From Candidatus Latescibacterota bacterium (GTDB lineage Bacteria > Latescibacterota > UBA2968 > UBA8231), in NCBI GenBank assembly GCA_965248355.1, contig OZ252098.1, positions 2,880,001-2,944,000 on the forward strand: a stretch of 64,000 bases of DNA. The letters run 5' to 3'. The position numbers and the translations under genes were made by a program. Below the pieces are notes generated by a model that saw only the letters and a program-made list of their open reading frames with translations, did not search any database and was not told the origin of the DNA. Shown in pieces: positions 58,609 through 59,609 of this stretch. Each line of letters starts with the position of its first letter. Position 1 is the stretch's first letter.

Positions 58609-58836
58609 ATGAACAGACTCATCAAGCCCCAGAAGCAGTCTTACACCGGCGAGGACGCCCAGGTCCTTGCTTATTCCGATGCCTGCGAGATAGCATGGCT
58701 CATGAACCTCTGCTCTGGCGGCATAGGCGCCGCAGTCTTGTTGGGCCTCGCCGTGCCGCCGGCCCTGGTCGCGTTCGGCGTGTCGTGCTTCATCATGTAC
58801 GTCATCACCTCGGCGGCGTGCAAGGGCTACATCTGA
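58609..58836 (+). CDS. Putative RiPP precursor peptide A1 (75 aa)
   Basis: GAAGGAG RBS; leader MNRLIKPQKQSYTGEDAQVLAY; 4 Cys; ends GYI. Confidence 0.85.
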   Translation: MNRLIKPQKQSYTGEDAQVLAYSDACEIAWLMNLCSGGIGAAVLLGLAVPPALVAFGVSCFIMYVITSAACKGYI

Positions 58837-58950
58837 TCCATTCCTCCCCGGCCCTTCTTTCAGTCGTGGACCGTCCTGATGAGCGGGACGAACAACGAAT
58901 GAACAGGGGGCATCTACGTGGGCGCTACATTCACCGGAAGGAGATCCATC

Positions 58951-59166
58951 ATGAACAGACTCAACAAGCCCCGAAAGCAGTCCTACACGGGCGATGACAC
59001 TCAGGTCGTTGCCTACTCCCGTCTCTGCGAGATGACGTGGACGACCGCCTTCTGCACAAGCTCCCTGCCCTTCCTCGGCGGCGTGCATCCCTTCCTGGTC
59101 GCGGTGGGAGTGAGCTGCTCCATCTTCTCCATGGTCTGTTCGGCGGTGAGCAACGGTTACATCTGA
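58951..59166 (+). CDS. Putative RiPP precursor peptide A2 (71 aa)
   Basis: Same RBS/UTR; leader MNRLNKPRKQSYTGDDTQVVAY; 4 Cys; ends GYI. Confidence 0.85.
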   Translation: MNRLNKPRKQSYTGDDTQVVAYSRLCEMTWTTAFCTSSLPFLGGVHPFLVAVGVSCSIFSMVCSAVSNGYI

Positions 59167-59387
59167 TCCCGTCACGCCGAGACTTGCGGCATAGACGCGA
59201 ACGTCGATAAGACAAACCCCTTAGCGCCCCGTAGATGCCCCCATGATCGAATCGTCTCGTCCCTGCCATGATCCCCATCCATGCCACCGGTTCTTTTGGA
59301 GTCGGGGCCCGTGACGGGGGGACGAACAACGAATTGAACAGGGGGCATCTACGTGGGCGCTACATTCACATCGGAAGGAGATCCATC

Positions 59388-59609
59388 ATGAGCAAACTCA
59401 TCAAGCCGCAGAAGCAGTCCTACACCGGCGAGGACTCCCAGGTCCTTGCCTACTCCCTTGCCTGCGAGATTGCGTGGGCCACCCAGTACTGCGTGGCCTT
59501 GGTAGCGGTTGCTCTCATTTTTGGCGGGCCGGCTGGGGTGGCCGGGGTTGGCATCCTGTGTGTCGTCATCTACGTCGTCTCCACGTCGGCGTGCCACGGT
59601 TACATCTGA
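59388..59609 (+). CDS. Putative RiPP precursor peptide A3 (73 aa)
   Basis: Same RBS/UTR; leader MSKLIKPQKQSYTGEDSQVLAY; 4 Cys; ends GYI. Confidence 0.85.
   Translation: MSKLIKPQKQSYTGEDSQVLAYSLACEIAWATQYCVALVAVALIFGGPAGVAGVGILCVVIYVVSTSACHGYI

Follow-up and report, generated by a model that had tools for sequence, protein, structure and literature searches.

Tandem genes for putative bacteriocin-like hairpin peptides with paired cysteines beside an ABC transport locus

Introduction

Glycocins such as sublancin, glycocin F and thermoglycocin are described as helix-loop-helix peptides held by two nested disulfides (PMC12457901). A CLI_3235-family cluster of Paenibacillus polymyxa is described as comprising (PMC10731318) a radical S-adenosylmethionine (radical-SAM) enzyme, a TIGR04066 protein, a TIGR04069 protein related to acyl carrier proteins (ACPs), a subtilisin-like protease and an ATP-binding cassette (ABC) transporter. 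Here we describe three tandem genes, A1, A2 and A3, for small peptides with paired cysteines in a 64,000-nt stretch of bacterial DNA (the window: contig OZ252098.1 of assembly GCA_965248355.1, positions 2,880,001 to 2,944,000 of the forward strand). We put at about even the chance that they are bacteriocin-like precursors of disulfide-stapled membrane hairpins and constitute a new family, their cleavage, modification and activity being putative.

58609-58836, + strand: A1, precursor-like peptide of 75 aa; residues 1-22 polar, 23-75 a hydrophobic hairpin; Cys at 26, 35, 60 and 71
58951-59166, + strand: A2, 71-aa paralogue; Cys at 26, 35, 56 and 63
59388-59609, + strand: A3, 73-aa paralogue; Cys at 26, 35, 58 and 69

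A glycocin-like fold would fit the hairpin model of the peptides and the parity, co-loss and spacing of their cysteines, with putative bonds. A 66-aa subfamily has the pattern CX6C...CX6C, and glycosyltransferases, a thioredoxin-fold oxidoreductase and ABC transport genes occur in the wider neighbourhood. Unlike the glycocin enzymes, the glycosyltransferases here belong to glycosyltransferase family 4 (GT4), and the one tested is also found in peptide-less genomes (9 of 10 genomes of the genus carry it); SunS-type enzymes belong to a different family. In the family alignment no Ser, Thr or Cys of the hairpin loop is conserved, the core is far more hydrophobic than in glycocins, and the oxidoreductase, encoded at a distance of 10 kb, may act on other neighbours rich in Cys.

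Class II microcins and bacteriocins are also small Gly/Ala-rich hydrophobic peptides with a leader-like N-terminus and Cys pairs. The locus shares with theirs an ABC exporter, a membrane-fusion protein, self-protection genes (functions taken from family names) and a patchy distribution. Unlike class II microcins, A1-A3 have no double-glycine leader and the exporter has no C39 domain, though a separate C39-like BtrH_N protein is encoded. They also differ in showing no likeness to Pfam or NCBIfam bacteriocin families, in having a tetratricopeptide-repeat (TPR) partner and an uncharged core resembling a transmembrane (TM) segment, and in their Gemmatimonadota host. The best-scoring named language-model clusters were class II bacteriocins (PF10439) with scores no higher than 0.80-0.82, which we treat as a weak lead. 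We found no described bacteriocin or RiPP family (RiPPs being peptides made on the ribosome and modified after translation) matching A1-A3 in the open-access and bioRxiv literature.

Three tandem peptides represent a narrow family

The same Shine-Dalgarno-like sequence, GGAAGGAG, lies 7 nt ahead of A1, A2 and A3 alike. The two paralogues are 55% and 53% identical to A1 in pairwise comparison, and the G+C fraction at A1-A3 is about 0.60, against about 0.70 in the surroundings. Residues invariant across the trio are M1, L4, K6, P7, K9, Q10, S11, Y12, T13, G14, D16, Q18 and V19, followed by A21, Y22, S23, C26, E27, W30, C35, G46, G57, C60, G73, Y74 and I75. A sequence-only reading of the window had listed S23, C26, E27, W30, C35 and a GYI end as common to the three peptides, which a three-way alignment confirmed, and the cysteine positions it gave for each peptide agree exactly with ours. 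A lipoprotein signal was ruled out by eye, as there is no lipobox and no hydrophobic region before C26.

A profile built from the trio matched 46 proteins (sequence clusters) of 66-75 aa in a collection of 5.8 billion proteins. Few of these are named, and the label is that of Gemmatimonadaceae hypothetical proteins. An exhaustive HMMER search of 1.84 billion representatives gave 9 clusters only at E<=0.001. Among 168 genomes of the phylum, peptide matches were found in five: the window genome, three congeners and, as a weak match, one genome of another genus (G148). Within the genus, 4 of 10 genomes (window genome counted) carry the peptides, at 1 to 4 copies per locus; the locus on CBDCSU010000006.1 was traced by genome search to contig C6 of a congener of the window genome, G167. 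Since the same grammar occurs in 46 database proteins, and in one to four tandem copies in four other genomes, its presence in the trio is beyond chance. None of the three peptides matched Pfam; at E<=1, A1 and A3 matched no NCBIfam family and A2 gave one spurious IolN row only; and the profile had 0 matches among Protein Data Bank (PDB) sequences at E<=10. The family is narrow, unannotated and lineage-restricted.

Conservation was scored in a 46-row alignment made of the window trio and P0004-P0046, with P0001-P0003 omitted as near-duplicates of the trio. E27 is present in all 46 members, C35 and C60 in 45 each, and S23 in 41. The head follows the consensus L-x-K-P-x-K-Q-S-Y-x-G-E/D-D-x-Q-V-x-A-Y. 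The sequence-only reading had called the GYI end invariant and listed the other residues as kept in all three peptides, and within the trio this holds; the grammar also recurs in the 46 proteins, but family-wide C26 is kept in 35 (Ser in the remaining 11), W30 in 29 and the GYI end in 15. Other endings include ACI, GLI and GWI, and the C-terminus varies in both length and sequence.

The array varies at the population level. In metagenome contigs from runs X8 and X9 a joint steps back 364 nt (58886-59249), which corresponds to a differently ordered or expanded array, and contigs from runs X5, X8 and X9 share a 3-nt in-frame loss in the turn of A2 (59083-59088). A 162-nt contig from run X20, an RNA library labelled 'sponge metagenome', spans 59320-59449 at 90-95% likeness and implies neither expression nor habitat. 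A 68-aa member in two other loci (L002, 9156-9362; L003, 3224-3430) joins a normal head to a non-hydrophobic, Pro/Trp-rich tail, as do P0049 and P0050. Its tails are identical between the two genomes, and it looks like a frame-shifted yet conserved derivative.

The polar head is conserved and the hydrophobic core diverges

Mean pairwise identity is 0.78 over residues 1-22 against 0.43 over the core. The grand average of hydropathy (GRAVY) is -0.85 for the head and +1.37 for the core, whose net charge is about 0. We applied the Nei-Gojobori method (NG86) to 12 genes from four loci (66 pairs), leaving out the two divergent 68-aa members of L002 and L003. Pooled over all pairs, the proportions of synonymous (pS) and nonsynonymous (pN) differences were 0.30 and 0.092 in the head, and 0.32 and 0.405 in the core. 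Nonsynonymous change is about four times quicker in the core than in the head at equal synonymous divergence, and because pS is equal, neither gene conversion nor an RNA constraint on the head accounts for the contrast. The polar 22-residue head is under purifying selection.

In close pairs far from saturation, the dN/dS of the core was 0.84-2.25, and the same script gave 0.16-0.27 for the neighbouring ATPase, 0.34-0.42 for the exporter, 0.47 for the TPR protein and 0.56-0.65 for the permease; absolute values are inflated at about 90% G+C at third codon positions (GC3), and the ranking is the result. The comparison of leader with core that the sequence-only reading had proposed thus shows a head that evolves like a leader. 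Residues 1-22 appear leader-like in their evolution, and cleavage behind them is putative.

A predicted hairpin with paired cysteines

AlphaFold2 (AF2), supplied with the 46-row alignment, returned a model with a predicted local distance difference test (pLDDT) score of 82, in which a helix at residues 15-44 is followed by a turn and a second helix at 51-72. The very hydrophobic helical hairpin expected from the sequence-only reading is supported by these helices and by the GRAVY of the core. A Foldseek search of the PDB with the model gave nothing significant (best E 1.4).

We counted core cysteines in 50 sequences, namely the 46 aligned rows, P0047, P0048, P0051 and the G148 peptide. Four cysteines are present in 36 sequences, two in 13 and one in a single sequence; three were never found. 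The count is therefore not conserved, which taken literally is an outcome that the sequence-only reading had named as refuting its proposal, but the manner in which it changes argues for pairing. Wherever residue 26 is Ser (11 sequences), the fourth Cys is missing too; these sequences form a single clade and represent about one event. P0048 and the G148 peptide have lost the inner pair and keep the outer pair alone. The spacings between successive cysteines fall into the classes (8,22-24,10), (6,22,6) and (8,19-20,6), with one sequence at (9,23,10), and the C1-C2 and C3-C4 spacings are at most 2 residues apart (8/10, 6/6, 8/6 and one 9/10).

We favour nested pairs because the cysteines are mostly lost as pairs and the two spacings track each other. 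The sequence comparison gives moderate support to C26-C71 as the probable outer partners and C35-C60 as the probable inner ones. A disulfide is the likeliest bond since both partners are Cys.

Genes of the locus and their co-occurrence

The following genes surround the array in the window.

48662-49675, + strand: A24 prepilin-peptidase-like membrane protein, the genome's sole Peptidase_A24 match over cut-off
52638-53912, + strand: GT4 glycosyltransferase
~54069-54705, + strand: unknown protein, ~211 aa
54702-55712, + strand: BtrH_N/DUF4872 cytoplasmic C39-like papain-fold protein (BtrH_N score 47.4 bits, cut-off 29.7)
55906-57111, + strand: GT4 glycosyltransferase between the BtrH_N and TPR genes
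57126-58559, + strand: TPR protein, 477 aa, directly upstream of A1 (Pfam TPR_2/TPR_12)
59684-61348, + strand: 554-aa multi-TM protein, putative permease of the adjacent ATPase
61367-62134, + strand: ABC ATPase of DrrA/lantibiotic-protection type, under curated cut-offs
62125-63885, + strand: fused ABC exporter, MsbA/HlyB-like

The BtrH_N/DUF4872 protein is a candidate peptidase or acyltransferase judging by its domains; we found no literature on DUF4872 in open-access sources or bioRxiv. It is doubtful that the GT4 at 55906-57111 belongs to the system, and a link of the A24-like protein to the peptides is uncertain, so we list that protein as context only. The exporter gave no C39 Pfam match, and peptidase-bearing models align to it from about model position 140, in agreement with an exporter that carries no C39 peptidase domain.

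The 554-aa protein had no Pfam match at threshold. Among its homologues, 13 of 16 showed a weak ABC2_membrane_5 match (best E 0.0024), and in its closest language-model clusters ABC_tran_2 or 12TM_1 occurs in 11-32% of members. A search of the genome with PF16949 returned nothing at E<=10, which leaves the ABC_tran_2 lead unconfirmed, and the AF2 model of the protein (pLDDT 36.6) offers no basis for fold comparison. A likeness of the permease to Peptidase_A24 (2 of 16 homologues, best E 0.0089; 19.5 bits in G167) was judged a composition effect.

The gene set continues past the right end of the window in a locus with its own coordinates (L007), where all genes are again on the + strand.

L007 882-1325, + strand: membrane-anchored unknown protein, 147 aa
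L007 1416-2189, + strand: YknW/Yip1 protein
L007 2189-4114, + strand: S8 protease fused to a DUF1611/TIGR04066-like domain
L007 4042-5061, + strand: HlyD-type adaptor
L007 4881-6281 and 6288-7511, + strand: two MacB-type permeases
L007 7495-8208, + strand: ABC ATPase
L007 8175-8471, + strand: ACP, matched by generic ACP models only
L007 10691-11855, + strand: insertion sequence (IS)-type transposase pair (HTH_Tnp_1 and rve integrase core), after a low-G+C gap past the ACP gene

The S8 fusion stays below the family cut-offs, with 125 bits for the QhpE model (cut-off 165) and 110 bits for TIGR04066 (cut-off 200). YknWXYZ protects B. subtilis against the SDP peptide toxin. The transposase pair may mark the right edge of an accessory island.

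We then compared the presence of these genes in the 10 genomes of the genus.

Peptides: 4 genomes; TPR protein: the same 4
Permease, BtrH_N, YknW and A24-like genes: 5 genomes each
S8-fusion orthologue (88-89% identical): 5 genomes
GT4 at 55906-57111 (the sole GT4 tested): 9 genomes, including peptide-less ones

The five-genome sets are identical and consist of the four peptide carriers and G165; the other five genomes of the genus have S8-fusion paralogues at just 33-44% identity. G165 has lost the TPR and peptide genes and keeps the permease and ATPase intact, with an inverted element (described below) still in place before the permease. Its GT4 gene is a remnant with 2 TGA stops, and about 13 kb of rearranged DNA separates this remnant from the permease. 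The rearranged region, in L017 (G165:C1:3461000-3480500), has a G+C fraction of 0.51-0.63 and holds extra ResA-like, A24-like and secreted-paralogue genes.

In G148, from another genus, the order of TPR protein, peptide, membrane protein, ABC ATPase and ABC exporter is as in the window. The TPR homologue is 26% identical (E 5e-13), the peptide has 77 aa and the outer Cys pair, and the membrane protein has no detectable similarity to the 554-aa protein. These comparisons point to a core cassette of TPR protein, peptide(s) and ABC machinery, with proteases and glycosyltransferases optional or unproven.

A second locus of G165 (L019/L020, G165:C1:1799000-1832000) encodes an ABC exporter, an S8-DUF1611 fusion, HlyD, two resistance-nodulation-division (RND) pumps and a BtrH_N/DUF4872 protein, and adjoins genes for a histidine kinase and a sigma-54 activator. 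The S8 fusion stands there between the ABC exporter and the membrane-fusion protein/RND pump, and no precursor-like small open reading frames were recognised in this locus. A role of the S8 fusion in peptide processing and export would fit its gene context.

Weighing the readings

As bacteriocin-like precursors, A1-A3 would be recognised through their invariant head, both by the co-inherited TPR protein and by the machinery that exports and processes them. The MsbA-type ABC exporter, followed by the HlyD/MacB pump across the outer membrane, would export the peptide, and the head might be removed by the S8-TIGR04066-like fusion, the BtrH_N/C39-like protein or the A24-like protein. Outside the cytoplasm C26-C71 and C35-C60 would oxidise to two disulfides, as the paired losses, the spacing and the hairpin model suggest, and the stapled hairpin would then enter target membranes. 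The 554-aa permease with its ATPase and the YknW-type protein, or the YknW/MacB block as a whole, may shield the producer or take part in export. The locus follows a bacteriocin-style logic, with arrays that vary in metagenomes, a patchy distribution, pumps kept in G165, a gene order repeated in G148, and YknW, HlyD and MacB-type genes downstream. This distribution suggests strain-level warfare in which peptides are lost while pumps are kept. If active, the peptides would offer a new scaffold of disulfide-stapled membrane hairpins. The family is a clean natural case of a conserved leader, a hypervariable core and paired cysteines, in Gemmatimonadota, which are abundant yet little-studied bacteria, and its constant partner, the TPR protein, is not a standard leader-recognition element.

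Several observations weigh against this proposal. No double-glycine motif is conserved in the peptides (T13-G14 only), and because there is neither such a motif nor a C39 domain on the exporter, leader removal has no assigned enzyme. No BtrH_N or A24 protein was found in the G148 genome (86% complete). The two nested cross-links proposed by the sequence-only reading agree with Cys parity, co-loss and spacing, but two sequences break the pairing rule: P0045 has C26 and C35 only, and P0023 has one Cys. The paired losses amount to about three independent events only, and by geometric reasoning a spacing of 8 in helix 1 is out of phase with a spacing of 10 in helix 2 if the helices are straight. 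The inflation of NG86 dN/dS at high GC3 also counts here, and the five island-bearing genomes may be one subclade, in which case their counts are not independent.

The main rival, a possible but rather unlikely one, is that A1-A3 are two-pass inner-membrane micro-proteins whose conserved cytoplasmic head docks to either the TPR protein or the ABC transporter; they might be accessory or regulatory subunits of it, for instance, and their hydrophobic part would drift since hydrophobicity alone matters. The uncharged core equals a TM hairpin in hydrophobicity and might remain in the producer membrane, and the top Foldseek rows, although non-significant, are small membrane-protein subunits such as cytochrome bo3 subunit IV. 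Both facts speak for resident proteins and against secreted ones. The first AF2 helix also passes unbroken through the proposed AY/S junction between head and core, neither a cleavage motif nor a protease is assigned, and a core dN/dS near 1 is compatible with relaxed rather than diversifying selection. Resident subunits are harder to reconcile with a copy number of 1-4 and with very divergent paralogues side by side, and the G165 transporter is intact despite the loss of peptides and TPR protein. Oxidised peptides outside the cytoplasm typically show such even Cys numbers and losses in pairs, and two more export systems are encoded nearby. If the peptides are resident after all, they would be an unusual set of micro-proteins, two-pass, fast-evolving and in tandem, with ties to an ABC transporter. 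A less probable and somewhat doubtful alternative is that A1-A3 represent a new RiPP-like class in which the TPR protein, not a PqqD-type element, reads the invariant 22-residue head, and nested Cys pairs staple a TM-like hairpin of hypervariable sequence. The S8-TIGR04066-like fusion, the ACP and the BtrH-like acyltransferase or peptidase would then be a ranthipeptide accessory kit minus the radical-SAM enzyme, the head would be processed, and a hypothetical ACP-dependent modification would be added before export by the ABC/MacB systems. In a sub-variant, the island's orphan A24 peptidase would make the cut where the head meets the membrane, although the genome encodes no ATPase for pili or type II secretion.

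The ranthipeptide precursors named in the sequence-only reading, or sactipeptides, would have their cysteines converted to thioethers by a radical-SAM/SPASM enzyme, and this we consider very improbable. Tandem Cys precursors with a conserved leader, next to subtilisin-like, TIGR04066-like, ACP-like and ABC transporter genes, do resemble CLI_3235- or freyrasin-type clusters, and the island's S8-TIGR04066-like fusion and ACP parallel the accessories of the P. polymyxa CLI_3235-family cluster (PMC10731318); the invariant E27 beside C26 would also suit such precursors. The locus differs in having no radical-SAM/SPASM maturase, in precursors that lie outside the family models and in accessories that are all below cut-off. 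The nearest radical-SAM protein (46841-48049) belongs to the PA0069 family (480 bits) and is the only one of 18 Radical_SAM matches in the genome that is near the locus. The two SPASM matches lie at 0.90 and 5.44 Mb and the locus at 2.94 Mb, so that no SPASM radical-SAM enzyme is encoded within 2 Mb. The ACP does not match TIGR04069, and comparison with the NCBIfam models of Cys-rich peptide families, which the sequence-only reading had suggested, gave no precursor match at E<=1. Since both link partners are Cys and are co-lost, the pattern suits Cys-Cys bonds and not Cys-to-acceptor thioethers. The idea was thus not borne out, and the sub-threshold accessory genes are a partial echo of it. 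Less improbable, though still unlikely, is that A1-A3 are signalling pro-peptides, exported as hydrophobic peptides and sensed by the adjacent TPR protein, by analogy with RRNPP systems. TPR and peptide genes stand side by side and come and go jointly, the MalT-like TPR family (PF17874) is listed for most TPR homologues in precomputed Pfam annotation, and ABC exporters are encoded alongside. RRNPP systems, however, are known in Firmicutes, and neither Pfam nor NCBIfam revealed a DNA-binding domain in the TPR protein. What the paralogues conserve is the polar head, which is no candidate for a mature signal, and one TPR protein would face 3-4 very different cores. Least probable of all is a circular bacteriocin, in which the head is removed and residue 23 joined to the C-terminus. 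The succession of a large multi-TM protein and an ABC ATPase is similar to the as-48B/D layout, and the GYI end is common to the three window copies. Head-to-tail cyclisation, named as an alternative by the sequence-only reading, found no support in the family, where the C-terminus varies as described above. The model has two helices against 4-5 in circular bacteriocins, whose cores of 58-70 aa have conserved ligation ends, and no DUF95/SpoIIM-type protein was present among the proteins scanned.

An inverted element in the peptide array

Each peptide gene of the window is preceded by a copy of one element, and inverted partners follow A2 and A3.

58564-58585, + strand: 5' element GGGGGCATCTACGNGGGCGCTA, before A1
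58906-58927, + strand: the same element, before A2
59341-59362, + strand: the same element, before A3
59222-59242, + strand: inverted partner TAGCGCCCCGTAGATGCCCCC, after A2
59663-59683, + strand: the same partner, after A3

The three forward copies are all that the 5.5-Mb genome contains, and across four loci the element stands ahead of 13 of 14 peptide genes. The partner is the reverse complement of the forward element minus the N. Its copies lie within exact 36-nt repeats (59213-59248 and 59654-59689), and the second copy directly adjoins the permease start codon (ATG). With the arms paired, the predicted RNA folds are far more stable than those of shuffled sequences: z is -4.45 when the fold brackets A2 and -6.63 in a 140-nt hairpin of the A2-A3 intergenic region. 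Covariation is not decisive because the duplex core never varies; at the outer end of the duplex we noted by eye one compensatory change and a few wobble-compatible ones. The element could serve in mRNA processing or stabilisation, or as an operator.

A scan of the peptide locus for sigma-70-type promoters found none, and a terminator scan gave three terminator-like sites that all fall within coding sequence and of which two overlap. Rfam returned one chance-level row only for 58300-59900 (E 0.19).

A putative prepilin-type peptidase and secreted paralogues upstream

Type IV prepilins and Flp pilins, with their class III signal peptides, share with the peptides a short basic polar head that leads straight into a hydrophobic helix with an invariant Glu close to its beginning. 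In the window copies E27 is at +5 from the proposed AY/S junction, and an A24-family peptidase is part of the accessory set. Unlike in prepilins, position -1 of A1-A3 is Tyr and not Gly, and the Glu offset shifts (+3 in G148, +3 and +6 in P0051). N_methyl, Flp and T2SSE ATPase models had no match in the genome, and the 101-aa gene beside the A24-like gene has a better G/FIASE site.

This 101-aa protein has 10 Cys and, by eye, the N-terminus MLKRFRNLVGG/FIASE (the slash marks the junction). On its other side the A24-like gene follows that of a ResA/TlpA-like protein (47976-48632) that has a thioredoxin fold and a CRYC motif, and the three adjacent genes together span 47976-50086. The arrangement suggests an orphan peptidase of the prepilin type, accompanied by a candidate substrate rich in Cys.

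Three paralogous secreted proteins of 309-337 aa with a signal peptide are encoded at 45768-46775, 50172-51101 and 51237-52250. They matched neither Pfam nor NCBIfam, and they share the conserved C-terminal motif VEPSSW(G/A)RIKAAL.

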